A stretch of DNA of 64,000 bases from an uncultured bacterium (GCA_942493235.1 OW818676.1:2919605-2983604), one strand, 5' to 3'; positions 34,504 through 45,022 are shown, counted from the first letter of the stretch. Program-made: numbers and translations. Notes: a model not told the origin generated them from the sequence alone.

Positions 34504-36366
34504 ATGGCAGATAAAAAATATCAAACCGGTAACACTGAATTCGGGTCAATAGGTAGAACTAATATTTTTAAAGGTTTAGTGATTGTTTTTGCAATATTAT
34601 ATATTGGCAGATTGGGCTATTTGCAAATTGTAAAGGGCAGCACTTACTTAGTAGAATCCGAAGCACAAGCTATTAAACAAGAAGTAGTTGAACCATTCAG
34701 AGGTAATATATTCGACCGTAATGGTGAACTATTGGTTCATAATGAGCCGTCATTTACAGTAAAAGTTACTCCAAGTGATTTTAAGCCTGAAGCTTTAGCA
34801 CTATTGTCTTCGTTAGTTGGCATAGATTCTAATGAAATAAAAAAAACTATTAAATCTTTTGAAGGATTTTCAAGATTCGAGCCGATTAAAATAGCGAGAG
34901 ATATTGATAGAAGTATGGCATTACTAATTGAAGAATACAGTGATTTCCTCCCCGGAGTAGATATATCAATTGAATCAAAGAGATTATATGATTTTGCTGG
35001 TAGCATGTCGCACTTATTCGGTTATACTCGCGAAATATCTCGTGAAGAATTAAAGAAATATTCAGATTATAAGCCGGGGGACAATATTGGTAAAACCGGA
35101 ATTGAAGCTGCATACGAAGACTTTCTCAAAGGCACTAAAGGTATTAAATATGTAGCTGTTAATCGTGGTGGGCAGAAAGTGTCAAGTTTTAATAACGGCA
35201 AAAGTGACGAATCGGTCAAAAACGGATTTGATTTATATCTATCACTTCATAAAAAAACCCAAGAGAAAGCAGTCAGCCTGCTTGAAGGAAGGCGTGGTGC
35301 AATTATTGCCATCGACCCAAGCAACGGCGAGATAATAGCTTATGTATCTAAACCTGATTATGATTTACAAGAAATGAGCGGCAGAGTACGTCCGGAATAT
35401 TATTCCCAATTAAGAGACGACGATGGGCACCCACTTGTTAATCGTGGTGTAATGTCAGCATATCCCCCGGGATCAACTTGGAAAATGCTTGTAGCGATTG
35501 CCGGACTTCAGGAAGGCTTAATAAATGAAAATACTACTTTTTATTGCGGCGGTGCATTCCAATTCGGTAATAGGTCTTACGGTTGCCACGGAGCTCATGG
35601 CTCTGTAAATGTTAGAACTGCATTGAAAGCCTCTTGTAATATTTATTTCTATCAATTAGGGCTTAAATTAGGGCTTGACCGCTTAGCAAAATATGCTAAT
35701 ATGTTCGGTTTCGGTCAAAAAACACAAGTAGATATTCCAAATGAGAATAGAGGATTCTTCCCTACTGCCGAACTATTAGATAAAAAGTTCGGAAAAGGAG
35801 CTTCAAAATATAAAGGCAGATTAGTCAATTATGGTATTGGTCAAGGCGAGATAAATGTAACCCCTATTCAGATGGCTGCCTATATCTCGACCATTGCTAA
35901 TAAAGGCACTTATTACCAGCCACATGTAGTCAGAGATATTTATAATAATGTAACAAAAAAAATGCGAAAAAATGACTATTATTCAAGAGAACTTCCTATT
36001 GATAAGAGAGTATTTGATATAATATTACCCGGTATGTTTGATGTAGTTAATCAGCCCGGAGGTACTGGCTTTGGAGCTTTCGCTTTATATCGCCAGTTTC
36101 TTACCGGATTTCAAGTATATGGTAAAACCGGTACGGCTGAAAACCCTCACGGAGATGACCACTCATGGTTTGTATGCTTTGCTTCAGAAAACGGAAAGCC
36201 TAAAATAGCTGTAATTGCTATGGTAGAAAATGCCGGTTTCGGTGCTACGGTTGCAGCTCCTATTGCTTATCAAATATTAGCTACTTTCTTAAATCCGAAA
36301 TTTGAGGAAGTTCCTATTTATGACTCTCAAACAAGTGGTAAAGATTCAACAATAACAGAGGATTAA
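34504..36366 (+). CDS. mrdA: Penicillin-binding protein 2
   Basis: N-terminal TM, RGNIFDRNG, YPPGSTWK (SxxK), SCN (SxN), KTGTAE. Confidence 0.93.
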   Translation: MADKKYQTGNTEFGSIGRTNIFKGLVIVFAILYIGRLGYLQIVKGSTYLVESEAQAIKQEVVEPFRGNIFDRNGELLVHNEPSFTVKVTPSDFKPEALALLSSLVGIDSNEIKKTIKSFEGFSRFEPIKIARDIDRSMALLIEEYSDFLPGVDISIESKRLYDFAGSMSHLFGYTREISREELKKYSDYKPGDNIGKTGIEAAYEDFLKGTKGIKYVAVNRGGQKVSSFNNGKSDESVKNGFDLYLSLHKKTQEKAVSLLEGRRGAIIAIDPSNGEIIAYVSKPDYDLQEMSGRVRPEYYSQLRDDDGHPLVNRGVMSAYPPGSTWKMLVAIAGLQEGLINENTTFYCGGAFQFGNRSYGCHGAHGSVNVRTALKASCNIYFYQLGLKLGLDRLAKYANMFGFGQKTQVDIPNENRGFFPTAELLDKKFGKGASKYKGRLVNYGIGQGEINVTPIQMAAYISTIANKGTYYQPHVVRDIYNNVTKKMRKNDYYSRELPIDKRVFDIILPGMFDVVNQPGGTGFGAFALYRQFLTGFQVYGKTGTAENPHGDDHSWFVCFASENGKPKIAVIAMVENAGFGATVAAPIAYQILATFLNPKFEEVPIYDSQTSGKDSTITED

Positions 36367-36373
36367 TTACAAA

Positions 36374-37033
36374 ATGTGTGGAAGATTTGCATTATCACCA
36401 AAAACTAATAAAATAGAAGCATTATTACCGGATAGTAAATTGATACTTAATAATGTTCCTCGTTTTAATATTGCCCCTGGTTCAAACGTAAATTGTATTA
36501 TCAATAAATCCGGTAAATTTGCTATCGGCGAATTTCTCTGGGGTTTGATTCCGTCTTGGTCAAAAGATAATATGGGTGCCTTTAATCTATTTAATGCCAA
36601 ATCCGAAACTCTGGACGAAAAACCCGCTTTTAAATATTTAATCAGTCGTAACAGAGCATTAATCCCTGCTACCGGCTTCTATGAATGGAAAAAAGAAACT
36701 TCAAAAACAAAAACTCCTTATTATTTCTATTTAAATGATACTGAAGTATTTGCTTTTGCAGGACTTTATGATAAATGGAAGAATTCAGCCGGAGCTATAG
36801 TTTATTCTGTTACTATTATTACTACTGATGCTAATTCAATAATGAAACCTATTCATGACCGAATGCCTATAATATTAGATAATTCTAATGCTGCCGAATA
36901 TCTTAATCACTCAAATAACATTCAAGACTTCCTAAAACCATATAAAAGCCGAAAGATGAAAACATATCAGGTGGATAGATATGTCAATAGTGCTCTTAAC
37001 GATGGCGAATTATGTGCTAAACCATTAATTTAA
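36374..37033 (+). CDS. SOS response-associated peptidase (SRAP/YedK/HMCES), abasic-site protection
   Basis: MCGRF N-terminus, RFNIAPG, WGLIPSW, FNAKSET, GFYEW, IHDRMPIIL. Confidence 0.94.
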   Translation: MCGRFALSPKTNKIEALLPDSKLILNNVPRFNIAPGSNVNCIINKSGKFAIGEFLWGLIPSWSKDNMGAFNLFNAKSETLDEKPAFKYLISRNRALIPATGFYEWKKETSKTKTPYYFYLNDTEVFAFAGLYDKWKNSAGAIVYSVTIITTDANSIMKPIHDRMPIILDNSNAAEYLNHSNNIQDFLKPYKSRKMKTYQVDRYVNSALNDGELCAKPLI

Positions 37034-37127
37034 GTGGTGATTATATCAGATTTGCAATCCTTATTAAGAAATTCAAAATAATTTCTTTTTTCAACTATTG
37101 CTAAACTATCGAATTTTTGATTAAACT

Positions 37128-37260
37128 CTTATCAAGAGGTTGTCATTATGAAAGAAGTGAAGAATCCAGATAAAGCTAAATACTGATAATTCTGGATTCT
37201 TCGTTACAATCAGAATGACGATTTGGCAATATTATTAATTTTAGACAGCCTCTTGATAAG
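37128..37260. mobile_element. MITE/REP-like element with nested inverted repeats
   Basis: Outer arms CTTATCAAGAGGTTGTC / GACAGCCTCTTGATAAG (1 mismatch); inner GTCATT..GAAGAATCCAGA / TCTGGATTCTTC..AATGAC; lies between convergent genes. Confidence 0.75.
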
Positions 37261-37363
37261 CATATACTAAATTATTAATACATCGATAAATGAACTATAA
37301 ACAAATATTTTGGACTTTTACAACAGACTTATATCTGTAATCGTGTATTGCAACAGTTCTTCT

Positions 37364-39013
37364 TTATTGTAATTTAAAGCGAATCGGCAATTTAACTTCA
37401 AAATCATCGCCGGTTCCGAAATCAATACCCGAAGTATTAAACATATTGACTACTCTAAGCACTTCATTATCAAAATCTTTGTTAATGCCTTCGGATATTT
37501 TTATATCCTTGATTTTACCTTTATTAGTAATTTTAAAAGTTACATATACAGTACCACTAATATTAGATTTGATTCCCGATTCAGGATATTTAATGTTTTT
37601 GCCGACGAACCTCATCATAGCATCAGTATTGACTTTGCCCATTTCATTATACGAATTATCGCCTTTTTTACCTTTTTGATTAGTAATGCTTAAAGTTGGC
37701 TCTTCTTTAGCTTTCCAGACATTAACATCGCCGAATTGAACACGAATAATATCATGTTCATAAGCAGCTGTTCCAGTCGGATTTTCAACTTTTTTGAAAT
37801 CGCCGTATCCTCTGACTAAGCTTATAGCTTTTTCTTCAAGACCATAACCTAATTTGGATTTCCACTCACCTTCGACTACTTTTCCATTAATTGCTTTTAT
37901 GTAAATTAGTTTACCATTGGGGTCACGAACAGTTTTTAAATTAATTACAGCATTAGTAATTCCGGCTTTTACAGCTTCAGCAGGAATATCTCTTACATCT
38001 TGAAGCTTATTATAAAATGATGAGAAATCCGGCAAGTACCTTTTTGCAGAATCAATAGGTATAATCTTACCATTTTCATCAAAACAGCAGCTATATTCAT
38101 ATTTTGCATATTTATCGTCTGCCGATACAGGATTGTTTTGCTTATTACAAGCAAATGCAAAGAATAAAATTGCAGATAACGGAATAAACATTAGATATTT
38201 AATATATTCCGATTTTCGAGAATTGTTTTTGTTAAGCATTTTAAACCTCTTTTTTATCATTGACATACTAAATGAGTTGACTGGTGCGGCGAAGAGGTTT
38301 TTCAGTGTTGCAGAAAGCATTAGTTTTTTGTAGTCTTCTTTTCTAACTCCTTGATTAATAATTAAATTATCGGCTGTAAATTCGTGGTTTTCACGTAAAG
38401 CTTTTTCGTAAAGATATATAAAAGGATTAAGCCATAATATAGATTTTATTATTGATACAAATAGCAAATCCAAAGAATGATAATTGTCAATATGGATTTT
38501 CTCATGCTTAAATATTTCACAGAAGTCTTTTGATTGGTAAATTGATTTACTGACAAATATACTTTTTATAAATGAAAACGCCGGAATTTCTTTATTTATT
38601 ATATATAAATTTGTACTATCGTGCTGAGCATGAACTGCTTTTATTTTCAATAGGTTAATCCTAATTACCGAATAGATATAAACGGCGATAAATATTGAAC
38701 TGAATATGATAAATATTAGCATAGCTAAGCTATTATAATTTAATTCACTTAACTGCAATGTATGAGCTGGAGCATTGGCATAGACCACTATTCCCTGAAT
38801 ATAATTATTATTATAGATAGAATTGTCGGAAATAGATTCCGTAGATAGCGATATATTAATTATTGGAATTACAAGACTTAGCAATAATGTAAGTAGCAAA
38901 TAAACGCGGTTTAATGTAAAGAATGTATTTTTGCGTAAAAGCAAATAATATAATCCATAGAACACTCCGGTGCAGAGCGATGATTTAACTAAATAACTTA
39001 AAAACTCATTCAT
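37364..39013 (-). CDS. BlaR1-like M56 peptidase fused to tandem TonB-C domains (paralog 1)
   Basis: FSF..IF, HEKIH (HExxH), WLNPF, ENHEFTAD, KKRFKML; C-terminal GYGLEEKAI and KNIKYPE...GTVYVTF.I...GKI.DIKI; start MNEFLSY at 39013. Confidence 0.9.
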   Translation of the reverse strand: MNEFLSYLVKSSLCTGVFYGLYYLLLRKNTFFTLNRVYLLLTLLLSLVIPIINISLSTESISDNSIYNNNYIQGIVVYANAPAHTLQLSELNYNSLAMLIFIIFSSIFIAVYIYSVIRINLLKIKAVHAQHDSTNLYIINKEIPAFSFIKSIFVSKSIYQSKDFCEIFKHEKIHIDNYHSLDLLFVSIIKSILWLNPFIYLYEKALRENHEFTADNLIINQGVRKEDYKKLMLSATLKNLFAAPVNSFSMSMIKKRFKMLNKNNSRKSEYIKYLMFIPLSAILFFAFACNKQNNPVSADDKYAKYEYSCCFDENGKIIPIDSAKRYLPDFSSFYNKLQDVRDIPAEAVKAGITNAVINLKTVRDPNGKLIYIKAINGKVVEGEWKSKLGYGLEEKAISLVRGYGDFKKVENPTGTAAYEHDIIRVQFGDVNVWKAKEEPTLSITNQKGKKGDNSYNEMGKVNTDAMMRFVGKNIKYPESGIKSNISGTVYVTFKITNKGKIKDIKISEGINKDFDNEVLRVVNMFNTSGIDFGTGDDFEVKLPIRFKLQ

Positions 39014-39066
39014 ATTAAAACCGTATTTTATTTTATAATTTACCAATTATTTTATATAACACATTA
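38099..39066 (-). repeat. ~970 bp near-identical duplication (partner 40882-41852)
   Basis: Shared from about 53 nt upstream of the ATG (TAATGTGTTATATAAAATAAT) to ...GCAGACGATAAATATGCAAAATAT; the sequences diverge abruptly after DDKYAKY. Confidence 0.9.
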
Positions 39067-39079
39067 TAAGAATAGTTAG

Positions 39080-40096
39080 TTACACTTTTTTGGAAATTTT
39101 AGTCGGAATTATTGATTGAGGCTTCTTATCAAAAGTGAAACTAATCGGAATACGTATTTCATCATTATTAGCATAGCCAATATCATAATTATAATCATTT
39201 ATCAGACTAATCACTCTTAATGCTTCTCTATCAAATTCTTTATTAAATCCATCAGTAACTTTAATATCTCGAATTCTTCCTTTATTATTGATAATAAAGC
39301 TAACATACACAGTTCCGCTAATTCTATTGTAAACCGCTGAAGAAGGATATTTCAAGTTTTTTTCTATGAATTTTTCCAAGCTATCAAATTTCACAGTATG
39401 AGTCATTAAGTCCCAATTTTTTTTGTCATCTTTATTCATTATCTGCTCTACCATTGGGTTTTTCGCTCTATAAACATCATAATTTCCGAATTGAAGTCTT
39501 ATATTTTCGCACTGATATGCAGGAATTCCTTTAGGATTAACAAGATAAGTACGATATTTAACATTTTTGCGAACAATTTCTTCGGCTTTTTTGTCAAATC
39601 CATATCGAATATCTGTTGACCAGCCACCGTTAGTATTTCCTTGTATCGCTTTGACATATATTAACTTACCGTTTGGGTTATAAATTGTTCTAACATCAAT
39701 CTCACAAGTAGTAAGCAAATTTTCTAATTCTTTTGGTTTATTTTTAATTTTTGATACACTTTTATGAATTTCTTCGACTTCTTTAGGAAAATCCATAATA
39801 TTTGAAGTTAGTTTCGGATATAACTCAGGTGTATAAGCAAAATGTCTTGGAAGTGAGTCTTCACTCGGATATTCATTCTTTACCATTTTTCCATCTATAT
39901 ATGAATAAGATGCATCTTTTAATAAATTTCCAAATTTATCAAAAAAGTAATATTCGTAAATATTTGGACACTTTGCTATGATTTGTTCATCCATACTTTT
40001 TACTGCTATAGCTTTTTGACAGGAACTCATTGTAAATAAAGCAATAATTATAAATGTAATGTTTAAGATTACCAATAAATATATTTTGTTTTTCAT
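39080..40096 (-). CDS. Stand-alone TonB-C domain lipoprotein homologous to the C-terminal half of the M56 proteins
   Basis: Leader ending MSSC; NPNGKLIYVKAI..G.W...RYGFDKKAEEIVR and KNLKYPSSA...SGTVYVSFII; GGAG RBS. Confidence 0.82.
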   Translation of the reverse strand: MKNKIYLLVILNITFIIIALFTMSSCQKAIAVKSMDEQIIAKCPNIYEYYFFDKFGNLLKDASYSYIDGKMVKNEYPSEDSLPRHFAYTPELYPKLTSNIMDFPKEVEEIHKSVSKIKNKPKELENLLTTCEIDVRTIYNPNGKLIYVKAIQGNTNGGWSTDIRYGFDKKAEEIVRKNVKYRTYLVNPKGIPAYQCENIRLQFGNYDVYRAKNPMVEQIMNKDDKKNWDLMTHTVKFDSLEKFIEKNLKYPSSAVYNRISGTVYVSFIINNKGRIRDIKVTDGFNKEFDREALRVISLINDYNYDIGYANNDEIRIPISFTFDKKPQSIIPTKISKKV

Positions 40097-40107
40097 ATTT
40101 TACTCCA

Positions 40108-41799
40108 TTATTTTAATCTGAATTCAATTGGTACTATTGTTCTACTATCGTTACTACACCCCATATCAAGTCCTGAATTATTAAAAGAATTAACTACTCG
40201 CAAAACCTCAGCATCCATATCTTCATTTATACCTTTATCTATTTTGACATCCTTTAGTTTGCCGTTCTTGTTAAGAGTAAAGGCAACCCAAACCTGTCCG
40301 CTAACATTGTTCTTTATGCAGGATTCCGGATATTTTATATTTTTACGTACAAAGTCTAATAAGACATTAACCTTGGTAGTATTAAAGGGCATTGAAGTAG
40401 AATCTTTGGAATTAGTGGCTAATAATCTTTTTTTAATAACAGGGTCTTCCAAAGCTCTCCATTTATTTATGCTTCCGAATTGAACGCGTAATATACTATG
40501 TTCGTAAGCACGAATCCCATTCGGATTTTCAATCAATGTGCATTTCCCTAAGTTTCTTACAATTTCTTCAGCTTTTTCATCAAAACCATAGCCAACTTTC
40601 GATTTCCATTCCCCTCCGGCAATTTTGCCGTTAATTGCTTTAATATAAATAACATTGCCATCTTTATCGGTAATCTTTCTTACATTAATAGCAGCACAGT
40701 CGATACCAGCATTTACGGCTTCCGGTGGTAAATCTCGAATATCTTGAATTTTACTTAGTAAATCATAGTTTTCCAAATATCTGCGAATTGTTTTTGTCCG
40801 TGGTACTATTTTCCCATTATCATCATCATAACCTGTCCAAGGTATTATTTTTCCATTATCATCAAAATAACAGTATTCGGTATATTTTGCATATTTATCG
40901 TCTGCCGATACAGGATTGTTTTGCTTATTATTACAAGCAAACGCAAAGAATAAAATTGCAGATAACGGAATAAACATTAGATATCTAATATATTCCGATT
41001 TTCGAGAATTGTTTTTGTTAAGCATTTTAAACCTCTTTTTTATCATTGACATACTAAATGAGTTGACTGGTGCGGCGAAGAGGTTTTTAATTGTTGCAGA
41101 AAGCATTAGCTTTTTATAGTCTTCTTTTCTAACTCCTTGATTAATAATTAAATTATCGGCTGTAAATTCGTGGTTTTCACGTAAAGCTTTTTCGTAAAGA
41201 TATATAAAAGGATTAAGCCATAATATAGATTTTATAATTGATACAAATAGTAAATCTAATGAATGATAATTGTCAATATGAATTTTCTCATGCTTGAAAA
41301 TTTCACAGAAGTCTTTTGATTCGTAAATTGATTTACTTACAAATATACTTTTTATAAATGAAAACGCGGGAATTTCTTTATTTATTATATATAAATCTGT
41401 ACTATCGTGCTCAGCATGAACTGCTTTTATTTTCAATAGGTTAATCCTAATTACCGAATATAAATAAACAGTGATAAATATTGAACTGAATAATATAAAT
41501 ATTAGCATAGCTAAGCTATTATAATTTAATTCACTTAACTGCAATGTATGAGCAGGAGCATTAGCATAGACCACTATTCCCTGAATATAATCATTATTAT
41601 AGATTGAATTGGCGGAAATAGATTCCGTAGATAGCGATATATTAATTATTGGAATTACAAGACTTAGCAATAATGTAAGTAGCAAATAAATGCGGTTTAA
41701 TGTAAAGAATGTATTTTTGCGTAAAAGCAAATAATATAATCCATAGAACACTCCGGTACAGAGCGATGATTTTACCAAATAACTTAAAAACTCATTCAT
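40108..41799 (-). CDS. BlaR1-like M56 peptidase fused to tandem TonB-C domains (paralog 2)
   Basis: First ~305 aa differ from paralog 1 at only about a dozen positions; HEKIH intact; divergent C-terminal TonB-C pair. Confidence 0.9.
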   Translation of the reverse strand: MNEFLSYLVKSSLCTGVFYGLYYLLLRKNTFFTLNRIYLLLTLLLSLVIPIINISLSTESISANSIYNNDYIQGIVVYANAPAHTLQLSELNYNSLAMLIFILFSSIFITVYLYSVIRINLLKIKAVHAEHDSTDLYIINKEIPAFSFIKSIFVSKSIYESKDFCEIFKHEKIHIDNYHSLDLLFVSIIKSILWLNPFIYLYEKALRENHEFTADNLIINQGVRKEDYKKLMLSATIKNLFAAPVNSFSMSMIKKRFKMLNKNNSRKSEYIRYLMFIPLSAILFFAFACNNKQNNPVSADDKYAKYTEYCYFDDNGKIIPWTGYDDDNGKIVPRTKTIRRYLENYDLLSKIQDIRDLPPEAVNAGIDCAAINVRKITDKDGNVIYIKAINGKIAGGEWKSKVGYGFDEKAEEIVRNLGKCTLIENPNGIRAYEHSILRVQFGSINKWRALEDPVIKKRLLATNSKDSTSMPFNTTKVNVLLDFVRKNIKYPESCIKNNVSGQVWVAFTLNKNGKLKDVKIDKGINEDMDAEVLRVVNSFNNSGLDMGCSNDSRTIVPIEFRLK

Positions 41800-42051
41800 A
41801 TTTAAACCGTATTTTATTTTATAATTTATCGATTATTTTATATAACACATTAATATTGATCATCATTAGGTTAAATTTAAAATTCTATAAACAATCAAAG
41901 AGCAAAGAGACTTTGCTTCTATATCATTCTTACGAATAAAAGTATCGCTGTCTTCATTACATTACTTAAAGCAATGGAATTCATCTGCTTAATTATTTCC
42001 ACCCTACTTACGTATAATACGCAAGCAGGATGAAAATATGCGATGAGAAAA

Positions 42052-42423
42052 CTAATCATTATTATAGTCGTTATCCGTTAGCATATTTTGAATTTCTTCA
42101 AGCTCTGCTACAGATAAATTTCCTTCTTTAGCAAAGAAAGAAACCAAACCGCTATAAGAATCCCCGAAATAATTCTTTACGAAATTCTTCAAAAAGGATT
42201 TGCTGTAATCGCTTTTTGATACAGTCGGGAAATACATATAGCTCCCGCCAAAGTCTTTGTGAGAAATGAATCCCTTTTTTTCCAGAATTCTAATAATCGT
42301 AGAAACCGTATTGTATGCCGGCTTAGGTTCTGGAAATATTTCAACTACATTCTTCACAAATCCCTCTTGCAGACTCCATAGAATCTGCATTACTTCTTCT
42401 TCCGCTCTTGTCAACTCTTTCAT
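42052..42423 (-). CDS. BlaI/MecI/CopY-family transcriptional repressor
   Basis: MKELTRAEEEVMQILW, PKPAYNTVSTIIRILEKKGF, F..F.KNYFGDS...LVSFF, LS..ELEEI; start at 42423. Confidence 0.95.
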   Translation of the reverse strand: MKELTRAEEEVMQILWSLQEGFVKNVVEIFPEPKPAYNTVSTIIRILEKKGFISHKDFGGSYMYFPTVSKSDYSKSFLKNFVKNYFGDSYSGLVSFFAKEGNLSVAELEEIQNMLTDNDYNND

Positions 42424-42457
42424 AATTACAAATATAATACATTTTAAAACAGAATGC

Positions 42458-42494
42458 AACTAATATTTTAGTTAAATAACTAATTTATTAGTTA
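42458..42494. promoter_or_regulatory. Two tandem palindromes, candidate BlaI operators
   Basis: AACTAA-TATT-TTAGTT (42458-42473) and TAACTAA-TTTA-TTAGTTA (42477-42494), 20 bp apart and 35-71 nt upstream of the blaI-like start. Confidence 0.65.
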
Positions 42495-42647
42495 ACTAAT
42501 CTTAAATAATTGATTTATATAGTGATATGTTATATATAAATATTTATTATTGTACCGGAATAATAATCAAATGACAAAAGAAAAGTGTATTTTTTCTGCT
42601 TTAGGTAACTAAGAAAGTTGAAAATAATTGATATAGTAATTATAAGA

Positions 42648-42953
42648 TTCTTCGCTATTATGTGTGAGTAAGCAAATATAGAAATCTTTCTTACAACAGC
42701 GTTAGCTGTTGAACATCGGTAATAAACATTGTTTAGTCCCTACACTCTTTTTTCTCTTTTTGTCGTTAAAAGAAGAGAGTGATGGTGGAGTATCTCATTA
42801 TTTTACCAACGTTTAACTCCTAACGGAGTTAAAATATAAAATCATTGATGTTTATCAAATAATATATCCAAAATCAATATTTGATATATTAAGGTTATGA
42901 TTATACTAATAACAAATATTTGCTAACCCACTTAAAATAGAGAAGCCCCAATT
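42648..42953 (+). repeat. ~300 bp dispersed element, copy 3
   Basis: Near-identical direct copy of 11671-11975, from TTCTTCGCTATTATGTGTG to AAGCCCCAATT. Confidence 0.9.
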
Positions 42954-43252
42954 ATAAGTAAAAGACAAAATACAAATTCTTGTTAAATTAATTTATAAAA
43001 TTTCTGACTTTGTAAATTAGCACCCTTAGGAGTTACATATTGGTAAAAGTATAACTTACGAAGTTAAAAATCAAAAATACAATTGTATTATAAATTCAGC
43101 AAAATCAGAGGTTCGGACTACAAATTTATCAACTCAATTATATCTCGTTAAAAAAATATACTGATTATTTCGCTTCATTTTTATAATTTTGTAAATTAAA
43201 GTATTGAATATAGAAATAATAACATTTGTATAAATAATTGAACGACAAAATT

Positions 43253-44515
43253 ATGCTGAAAATCATAAGAGAAAATCCTGACAAAGTAAAAGAAAATATT
43301 CGTAAAAAACTTGAAAAAGCTGATATTCAGCCAATTCTTAATCTTGACGAAAAACGCCGTGCAGCTATACAAGAAGTTGAAAAGCTGAAAAACTTGAGAA
43401 ATACAACAAGCCAGGAAATTGCAAACCTTAAAAAGAGCAAAGAAAATGCCGACGATAAAATCGCCGAGATGAAACAAGTATCTGATAAAATCAAAGAGCT
43501 TGATGACCAATTAAGAACTATCGAAGAAGAATTAGACTTAATGGTACTAACTATTCCGAATATGCTTCATGATTCTGTTCCCGAAGGCAAAACACCCGAA
43601 GATAACCCTGTGATTCGCTCTTGGGGTTCTATAAAAGAAGAAGATACTACTGACCATATTGAGATATGCAAAAATTTAAGTTTAATTGATTTCGAACGTG
43701 GTGCTAAAGTTTCAGGCAGTGGCTTCCATTTCTATACAGGCAGAGGTGCGGCTTTAGAAAGAGCCTTGATTAATTTTATGCTTGACTCGCACATTAACAA
43801 ACACGGCTATACAGAAATCATGCCACCGTTTATGGTTAACGAAGAGTCTATGAAGGGAACCGGTCAGTTACCGAAAATGGCGGAAGACATGTACACTATG
43901 GAAAAAGATAATTTCCACATGATACCAACTGCCGAAGTGCCACTTACAAATTTCTATGCTCAGAATACACTTAATATTGAAGAAATGCCAATTAAATTCT
44001 GCGGTTATTCACCGTGCTTCCGTCGCGAAGCCGGCAGTTACGGCAAAGATACACGCGGATTATTGAGACTTCATCAATTCAATAAAGTGGAATTAGTTAA
44101 ATTCGCTCATCCGGACACTTCCTACGATGAGCTTGAATTATTGGTTGCAGATGTCGAAGACGTGCTTCAAACTCTCAATATTCCATACAGAGTGATTTTA
44201 TTATGCAGTGGCGATACCAGTTTCTCGTCTGCAAAAACTTATGACATTGAGGTTTGGTCACCGGCTGATAAAAAATGGCTTGAAGTCTCCAGCTGTTCTA
44301 ATTTTGAAGATTTCCAAGCCCGTAGAGCAAACATCAGATTTAAACGTACTCCAAATACAAAACCTGAATTTATCCATACTCTAAACGGTAGTGGTCTTGC
44401 CACTCCAAGATTGTTAGTTGCGATTTTAGAGAACTATATTCAAGCAGACGGCACTTTAATAGTTCCCGAACCATTGAGAAAATATACCGGCTTTGACAAA
44501 GTTGAAAAAGCTTAG
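43253..44515 (+). CDS. serS: Serine--tRNA ligase
   Basis: IPN.LH.SVP.GK, GAKVSGSGF, PTAEVPLT, CFRREAGSYGKDTRGLLRLHQFNKVE, EVSSCSN.EDFQARR, TLNGSGLA; start at ATG 43253 or TTG 43238. Confidence 0.97.
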   Translation: MLKIIRENPDKVKENIRKKLEKADIQPILNLDEKRRAAIQEVEKLKNLRNTTSQEIANLKKSKENADDKIAEMKQVSDKIKELDDQLRTIEEELDLMVLTIPNMLHDSVPEGKTPEDNPVIRSWGSIKEEDTTDHIEICKNLSLIDFERGAKVSGSGFHFYTGRGAALERALINFMLDSHINKHGYTEIMPPFMVNEESMKGTGQLPKMAEDMYTMEKDNFHMIPTAEVPLTNFYAQNTLNIEEMPIKFCGYSPCFRREAGSYGKDTRGLLRLHQFNKVELVKFAHPDTSYDELELLVADVEDVLQTLNIPYRVILLCSGDTSFSSAKTYDIEVWSPADKKWLEVSSCSNFEDFQARRANIRFKRTPNTKPEFIHTLNGSGLATPRLLVAILENYIQADGTLIVPEPLRKYTGFDKVEKA

Positions 44516-44533
44516 TTTTTCAACTTATTTTTT

Positions 44534-44574
44534 AAAAAACCTCTCATCACTCTTACTAATGATGAGAGGTTTTT
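44534..44574 (+). terminator. Intrinsic terminator after serS
   Basis: AAAAAACCTCTCATCA-loop-TGATGAGAGGTTTTT. Confidence 0.8.
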
Positions 44575-45022
44575 ATTATTACTACAATATAAATACACTA
44601 ACATTTGGCAATAGAATAGTTTACAAATATATGAATACTTGTAAACTATTCTATTGACTGTGCTATACCGGAATTATATTCAGCTATTAACCGTATAAAA
44701 ATAGACCCTAAACATTGAATAATACTATAATGACTATTTAAATATAATATCATAGTAGATTTTGAATACTTACTTTTCAATTAACAACTAATTGAGTAAT
44801 GTAAACATAAAACACTACAAAACAATAGTTTATATAAATAATCGATAAATATCAAATTTTAAATATTTGAGAATATTTAATAAATAATTTTATTATTATG
44901 TCGATATTCTTTAAATTAGTAATTCAGAATAATACAAGTTTTGCATGTATATATATTCTGAAAAATACTTTTGAAAATGAAATAGACAGTGTTTGCTATA
45001 AATATACATTAATAGGTGTGAA

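Follow-up and report, generated by a model that had tools for sequence, protein, structure and literature searches.

A BlaI/BlaR1-type locus with near-identical M56 membrane-protease halves and divergent TonB_C-like periplasmic halves, probably made mosaic by gene conversion

We analysed a 64,000-nt stretch of DNA from an uncultured bacterium (GCA_942493235.1, OW818676.1:2919605-2983604; hereafter the window, with positions counted from its first nucleotide), in which a BlaI-type repressor gene is followed by three genes that encode TonB_C-like domains. All four genes are on the minus strand and follow one another head to tail as blaI, M56_1, a gene for a stand-alone TonB_C protein that we refer to as the lipoprotein, and M56_2 (Table 1); gene calls and Pfam matches agree with the gene order and domain assignments of an initial annotation. 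The source genome, 4.23 Mb in one contig at 33% G+C, has no M56 genes other than M56_1 and M56_2.

Table 1. Features of the locus (nucleotide positions in the window, unless residues are stated; TM, transmembrane)
Feature	Position	Strand	Description
blaI	42052-42423	minus	123 aa; Penicillinase_R PF03965, E 2.2e-30 (Pfam)
M56_1	40108-41799	minus	563 aa; Peptidase_M56 + TonB_C (Pfam)
Stand-alone TonB_C protein (putative lipoprotein)	39080-40096	minus	338 aa; TonB_C, E 1e-13 (Pfam)
M56_2	37364-39013	minus	549 aa; Peptidase_M56 + TonB_C (Pfam)
Repeat copy 1	40882-41852	minus	53-nt leader and M56_1 codons 1-306
Repeat copy 2	38099-39066	minus	53-nt leader and M56_2 codons 1-305
M56_1 periplasmic part (AlphaFold)	residues 293-563		predicted disordered linker, 293-344; domain A (TonB_C-like), 345-452; domain B (TonB_C), 473-563
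End of TM4 in M56_1 (…FAFAC)	40933-40947	minus
End of TM4 in M56_2 (…FAFAC)	38150-38164	minus
Lipoprotein Cys26 codon	40019-40021
39-nt tandem duplication in M56_1 linker	40795-40871		GKIIPWTGYDDDNGKIVP
Candidate BlaI operator	42458-42493		two exact AACTAA-N4-TTAGTT dyads, 20 bp apart
Extra half-site pair	42488-42499		TTAGTT/AACTAA
-7 promoter box	42429-42436	minus	TATATTTG, Bacteroidota-type; TTG 23 nt upstream, blaI ATG 5 nt downstream
Terminator-like hairpin	41901-41917	minus	AGCAAAG-TCT-CTTTGCT and T-rich tail, in the 252-nt blaI-M56_1 spacer
Non-coding DNA between candidate operator and serS	42500-43237		about 740 nt
Long imperfect inverted repeat	42790-42844/43005-43059
Long imperfect inverted repeat	42650-42679/42916-42945

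M56_1 and M56_2 share a long direct repeat that begins in the 53 non-coding nt upstream of each ATG and, in M56_1, covers the four TM helices, the zinc protease domain and the start of the periplasmic linker. The two copies, 971 and 968 nt long, differ by 36 substitutions and one 3-nt indel (96.3% identity), and the encoded protease halves by 11 residues and one single-residue indel. Both edges of the repeat are sharp, identity falling to 25-65% inside one 60-nt alignment window and amounting to 60-65% past the edges. Beyond the leader, the outward flanks are unrelated, being the blaI spacer at copy 1 and the end of the lipoprotein gene at copy 2; the 3' edge lies directly after the DDKYAKY codons. 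The 36 differences are evenly scattered over the ~970 nt, and the longest difference-free run, 120 nt, is not significant. The initial annotation had described ~970 bp of near-identity including the 53-nt leader, sudden divergence after DDKYAKY, and genes built from constant N-terminal and variable C-terminal halves; its coordinates proved exact to the base, and both the step and the anatomy are confirmed. It had also proposed a check by sliding-window identity and dN/dS, which we ran, finding a sharp step in identity and a strong contrast in divergence between segments.

For the M56_1/M56_2 pair, synonymous (dS) and non-synonymous (dN) divergence were calculated by segment according to Nei and Gojobori. 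In the repeat half dS is 0.12 and dN 0.017; in the C-terminal half dS is 2.2, which is saturated, and dN 0.44, so that synonymous divergence differs ~18-fold between halves of the same genes. At the protein level, the C-halves of M56_1 and M56_2 are 49% identical and each is 35-37% identical to the lipoprotein, with all three alignable over their full length. A history without recombination, in which the near-identity of the N-halves is due to stronger purifying selection or the repeat is an assembly artefact, is in our view extremely unlikely. The M56 module is indeed the more conserved half across the family, but the conserved core of other tandem M56 pairs reaches only 73-75% nucleotide identity, and the synonymous contrast, together with the shared non-coding leader, excludes stronger purifying selection as the cause. 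As for an artefact, the genome is one contig and the copies have 37 differing positions, which is not the picture that a collapsed or duplicated assembly gives.

Trees of the two halves are discordant. In maximum-likelihood trees, the N-halves of M56_1 and M56_2 are sisters (support 99/95) joined by a path of 0.036 substitutions per site, and the path between their C-halves is 1.06 substitutions per site; for an outgroup pair, the metagenomic homologs P0003 and P0004, the N-half and C-half paths are near equal (roughly 0.6 and 0.7). Forced sisterhood of the M56_1 and M56_2 C-halves is rejected by the approximately unbiased (AU) test (p-AU 0.033). The N-halves of M56_1 and M56_2 are equidistant from P0003 and P0004 (62-65% identity), whereas the C-half of M56_2 has 59-62% identity to P0003 and P0004 and only 49% to the C-half of M56_1. 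The latter clusters with the lipoprotein (88/87), both on long branches. The paralogous periplasmic modules are therefore old, and the common ancestor of the N-halves is recent.

We consider it likely that this is a four-gene BlaI/BlaR1-type operon that was expanded in tandem and then made mosaic by one gene-conversion tract. Tandem duplication of a single M56-TonB_C gene would have produced the three periplasmic modules, whose divergence suggests that these paralogs separated at roughly the time when the lineage parted from the nearest sampled genera; the middle copy would have lost its M56 part, with its last TM helix turned into a lipoprotein leader. Much later, one non-reciprocal recombination between the flanking copies may have laid down a conversion tract of ~970 bp that overwrote the leader, membrane part, protease and first linker residues of one of them and ended where homology falls away, with ~4% divergence since. 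The even spread of the differences, without significant patches, fits a single event followed by such divergence. The initial annotation had proposed that the constant halves are kept homogeneous by gene conversion; recombination is borne out by the dS values and the trees, but ongoing exchange is not.

The clustering of the M56_1 C-half with the lipoprotein, and the resemblance of the M56_2 C-half to the resident ortholog, could alternatively reflect a young whole-gene duplication, after which the M56_1 C-half and the lipoprotein gene were imported from another lineage. This seems to us quite improbable. No donor-like sequence is present among 5.8 billion proteins, where the M56_1 C-half has an outside match of 49% identity at best, and there is no close stand-alone homolog of the lipoprotein elsewhere in the same collection. 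A crossover inside the N-half should have left a step in divergence, and none is seen. Base composition gives no signal of foreign origin, since G+C content and G+C at third codon positions are alike in all segments. Import fits the trees and the junction less well than gene conversion does.

Gene conversion as a single past event also differs from a suggestion of the initial annotation, that the locus is a cassette, which we take in its stronger form to mean a programmed or frequently recombining system that makes sensor variants within populations. RecA-mediated deletion or duplication can readily act on direct repeats of this length and similarity (968 nt, 96% identity), and other genomes also show tracts of raised identity that are limited to the M56 module (see below). 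Nonetheless, we regard such a cassette as very unlikely. At 3.7% divergence, with identical patches not beyond chance, frequent exchange is improbable, and most tandem M56 pairs elsewhere have diverged over their whole length. A recombinase, an invertase, a silent copy and an inversion signal were looked for near the locus and not found; the genes are joined by direct repeats only. Moreover, each gene contains only one block of homology, so that recombination between the repeats could remove or duplicate a 2786-bp unit (one repeat together with the M56_1 C-half and the lipoprotein gene) but could not exchange C-termini. Of the two outcomes that had been foreseen for such recombination, deletion of the middle gene is therefore possible and a swap of C-termini is not.

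The variable halves were said to carry tandem TonB-C-like domains in all three proteins, and profile and fold searches together agree. The last domain matches TonB_C (PF03544, E 3e-12 to 1e-13) and TIGR01352. Domain A goes undetected by Pfam, even at E 10, and its alignment with the last domain by hhalign is weak (E 0.01, probability 4%) but in register. In more distant homologs its counterpart by alignment is the first, canonical TonB_C domain, and an intermediate homolog (P0006) shares an 11-residue insertion with domain A. When domain A was modelled alone (AlphaFold pLDDT 90), its 11 best matches in the Protein Data Bank (PDB) were all TonB C-terminal domains, with probabilities of 0.75-1.0 and target TM-scores of 0.43-0.67; a Foldseek search with the full M56_1 model likewise retrieved TonB C-terminal domains, at target TM-scores of 0.65-0.74. 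Each of the three periplasmic parts is thus predicted to consist of two TonB_C-fold domains. The N-terminus of TonB energy transducers, a single anchor helix coupled to ExbB/ExbD and a proline-rich spacer, is absent, its place being taken by a four-TM M56 part or a cleavable leader, and the linker of M56_1 is not proline-rich. Just downstream of the putative conversion boundary, this linker carries a 39-nt tandem duplication (GKIIPWTGYDDDNGKIVP), which explains much of the length difference between M56_1 and M56_2.

The product of the middle gene begins with a signal peptide that leads to Cys26 (…TMSSC), followed by the two TonB_C-like domains, and is predicted from its sequence to be a lipoprotein. 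In alignments, its leader falls on the last TM helix of the fused genes and its Cys26 on their …FAFAC cysteine, and its sequence nests, with support of 100/100, in a clade of M56-fused C-halves whose outgroups are fused too. The simplest reading is that the lipoprotein descends from a fused gene that lost its M56 part. The reverse course would be a recent partial duplication-fusion in which the leader and M56 N-half were copied and joined in frame to a stand-alone TonB_C lipoprotein gene, so that one fused gene was made de novo and no conversion between fused paralogs was needed. The locus does hold a stand-alone version of the module, with its post-leader Cys aligned to the TM4-ending Cys of the fused genes; the junction lies just past TM4 and a short linker, and the evenly scattered differences are those expected after a single event. 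We nevertheless consider a fusion of this kind unlikely, since the clade that contains both C-halves otherwise consists entirely of M56-fused members, as do its outgroups, the genes can be aligned straight through the junction (…YAKY/EY.C.FD.NGKIIP) as expected of homologous genes, and a precise in-frame illegitimate join would be demanded. Here too the trees and the junction are better accounted for by gene conversion. A Cys immediately follows the last TM helix in ~12 of 17 aligned M56-TonB_C proteins (as FAC, FSC, ISC, FTC or AAC), and one may ask whether the periplasmic module is at times released or lipidated.

The constant halves have the hallmarks of M56 proteases. PF05569 scores are 41.7 and 40.6 bits for the two proteins, against a cut-off of 31, and the zinc site is HEKIH at residues 170-174. 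Among 65 homologs H170 is invariant, and E171, H174, H179, D182, H210, E211 and D215 are near-invariant (at least 90%); M56_1 and M56_2 retain all of these residues. The AlphaFold model of M56_1 has a pLDDT of 81 overall and above 90 over most of residues 1-290, the M56 membrane and protease part. A phmmer search of M56_1 against PDB sequences gave no match, and a Foldseek search with the model found the cryo-EM structures of Staphylococcus aureus BlaR1 (8EXP, E 6e-6; 8EXR, target TM-score 0.53). The modelled fold has four TM helices, with the protease on the cytoplasmic side of the membrane and the C-terminal domain on the extracytoplasmic side. That C-terminal part consists of the two predicted TonB_C-fold domains and not of a penicillin-binding sensor domain of the transpeptidase fold. 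The M56 pair is at most BlaR1-like in mechanism, and the two proteins are not beta-lactam sensors.

The blaI product aligns over residues 3-116 with S. aureus MecI (1OKR) and BlaI (1SD4), and is a BlaI/MecI-family winged-helix repressor with C-terminal dimerisation helices. Upstream of blaI lie the two dyads of the candidate operator, with an extra half-site pair beside them; the proximal dyad overlaps the TTG of the -33 element. The genome contains six exact dyads of this form against ~2 expected, two of them upstream of blaI. A relative with 57% identity (L022) carries this pair of dyads, with unchanged spacing, upstream of its blaI, followed by the TATATTTG box, and the box is also kept upstream of blaI in L023. 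No other TAnnTTTG box stands immediately 5' of a gene in this locus, and the shared 53-nt leader has no exact match to the pattern, although an internal promoter within that leader is possible. A sigma-70 promoter scan was not above shuffled expectation, with a model that does not suit this phylum. From these features, the four genes probably form one autoregulated operon. Elsewhere in the genome, a single intergenic dyad (genome positions 4073688-4073703) lies between an open reading frame (ORF) with multiple hydrophobic helices and a 422-aa ORF ~200 nt downstream.

The spacer between blaI and M56_1 contains a hairpin that may act as an attenuator; a pattern scan found terminator-like sites in the region no more often than expected from shuffling, which makes the evidence for this hairpin weak. 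Spacers of 150-250 nt with hairpins or inverted repeats separate blaI from M56 in the window (41800-42051), in L022 (7846-8000) and in L023 (400-564). At most other loci that we surveyed, the blaI and M56 frames abut or overlap. In the clade of the window, the sensor genes may be attenuated relative to blaI.

Based on the BlaR1 paradigm and on what TonB C-terminal domains do, we suggest how the locus could work. BlaI would bind the two dyads over the -33 element and repress the operon. The M56 proteins would sit in the inner membrane, with the zinc protease in the cytoplasm and the TonB_C-like domains in the periplasm, where a periplasmic or outer-membrane cue acting on these domains could switch on the protease, leading to BlaI cleavage and derepression. 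Two sensor modules would thereby report to one repressor, and the free lipoprotein module could buffer or assist. The initial annotation had conjectured that different modules could read different outer-membrane receptors; no gene for such a receptor adjoins the locus (see below). The domain identities, the operator footprint and the recombination signature are observed, and the nature of the cue, proteolysis of BlaI and the function of the lipoprotein are presumed. BlaR1 is a domain-swapped dimer (PDB 8EXP), and M56_1/M56_2 heterodimers might conceivably join two sensor modules on one BlaI-cleaving core, with the lipoprotein as a third partner. We think this a long shot, but if it were true, selection for compatibility in dimerisation and with BlaI would explain why identity tracts are confined to M56 in several unrelated arrays.

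Several observations weigh against our interpretation of how the locus arose and how it works. The AU test does not reject a clade of the three C-halves of the window (p-AU 0.16), so the duplications could be lineage-specific and somewhat younger than we have proposed. When the 12 amino-acid differences between the N-halves are polarised against the outgroups, they divide three against three, with six undecided, and with one genome of the lineage at hand the order and direction of events cannot be fixed. The bond cleaved in S. aureus BlaI and MecI is that between Asn and Phe in LNFAK; at that position the BlaI of the window reads SF FAK, with Phe in place of Asn. The hairpin between blaI and M56_1 leaves the single-operon reading less than secure. 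Lastly, the remaining four of the six genomic dyads, three intragenic and one a single intergenic site, are not convincing as a BlaI regulon.

The expansion appears to be specific to the lineage of the window, since its nearest relatives have a single pair of genes. In a search of the 5.8 billion proteins, each window protein was alone in its cluster, and the nearest relatives were P0003 (57%) and P0004 (53%), each encoded in a plain blaI-M56 pair with neither a second M56 gene nor a lipoprotein gene; the genome collection searched contains relatives only at 28-34% identity. More distantly, tandem sensors are widespread. We examined 15 further loci from the phylum (L035-L049), picked for at least two M56 matches close together, and all 15 have one blaI followed by two to four tandem M56 genes with differing C-terminal regions, indicating that in this phylum it is common for a single blaI to precede several tandem M56 sensor genes. 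Many of the C-termini at these loci are not TonB_C by the profile used.

Most of the 22 paralog pairs compared, from 18 loci, are saturated at synonymous sites from end to end, and four of the 18 loci have tracts of raised identity. In L027, from a Prolixibacteraceae metagenome-assembled genome (392-4125), nucleotide identity is 90% over 432 and 123 nt, with dS of 0.3-0.4, and these tracts are separated and followed by saturated segments. An otherwise saturated pair in L049 (1708-5289) is 94.5% identical over 145 nt, and identity is 83% over 315 nt in L035 and 82% over 568 nt in L039. All of these tracts fall within the M56 module without reaching the C-terminal half, suggesting that homogenising recombination of tandem M56 paralogs stays within this module. 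The locus in the window shows the most extreme homogenisation among the loci surveyed.

Concerted evolution of tandem paralogs by partial gene conversion is a general phenomenon, and its signs, namely sharp identity steps, a contrast in dS between segments and discordant segment trees, are those described here; what sets the locus apart is that the tract matches a module boundary, between the membrane/protease half and the periplasmic sensor half. Like BlaI/BlaR1 and MecI/MecR1 of S. aureus, the locus pairs a PF03965 repressor with a four-TM M56 zinc protease that has an HExxH site, and, as in those systems, a dyad operator (here a candidate) lies over the repressor's own promoter. It differs from those systems in its operator sequence, in having two sensors per repressor and no divergent beta-lactamase or PBP2a target gene, in the residue before the cleavage site, which is not conserved, and in its sensor part, which is penicillin-binding in BlaR1 and predicted to be two TonB_C-fold domains here.

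M56 proteins with TonB_C domains beside a BlaI gene are a catalogued, uncharacterised architecture, and the locus is not a new kind of system; nor does it change the accepted working of the family. In Bacteroides thetaiotaomicron, the uncharacterised TonB10 (BT3898) combines M56 with two TonB_C domains and the equally uncharacterised TonB9 (BT3896), encoded next to it, is a stand-alone protein with two TonB_C domains (PMC10350073). The locus has the same architecture, M56 followed by tandem TonB_C, with a free two-domain paralog in the neighbourhood, but its first TonB_C domain is too diverged for Pfam and it has two fused paralogs with homogenised M56 halves. The available sections of a recent preprint (bioRxiv 10.64898/2026.04.08.717257) give M56 with TonB_C as the second commonest architecture among M56 (BlaR-like) proteins, report a BlaI-like gene near 96% of BlaR homologs, and contain no description of tandem sensor arrays or mosaics. 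The atypical BlaIR systems covered in those sections, such as CenIR of Clostridioides difficile, also combine M56 and a BlaI-like repressor with a C-terminal domain not directed at beta-lactams, although CenIR is a Gram-positive system with a different C-terminal region.

The locus resembles a natural domain-swap experiment, with near-identical protease halves, periplasmic halves of just 49% identity, and a free sensor module in between. Given the near-identity of the protease halves, any difference in activation between the two sensors must lie in the TonB_C-like part, and the M56_1/M56_2 pair would be a convenient starting point for finding the ligand of M56-TonB_C sensors.

The four genes are flanked on one side by genes for a PBP2-type transpeptidase and an SRAP peptidase, and on the other by genes for seryl-tRNA synthetase (serS) and a chemoreceptor (MCP). 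No exbBD genes were found flanking the locus, and no gene for a TonB-dependent receptor is adjacent; the genome has 22 Plug-domain matches, the nearest of them ~23 kb away. An Rfam scan of positions 36000-45000, which include the non-coding DNA between blaI and serS, gave no match. Within the part of this DNA that lies between the candidate operator and serS, there are two long, imperfect inverted repeats (Table 1).

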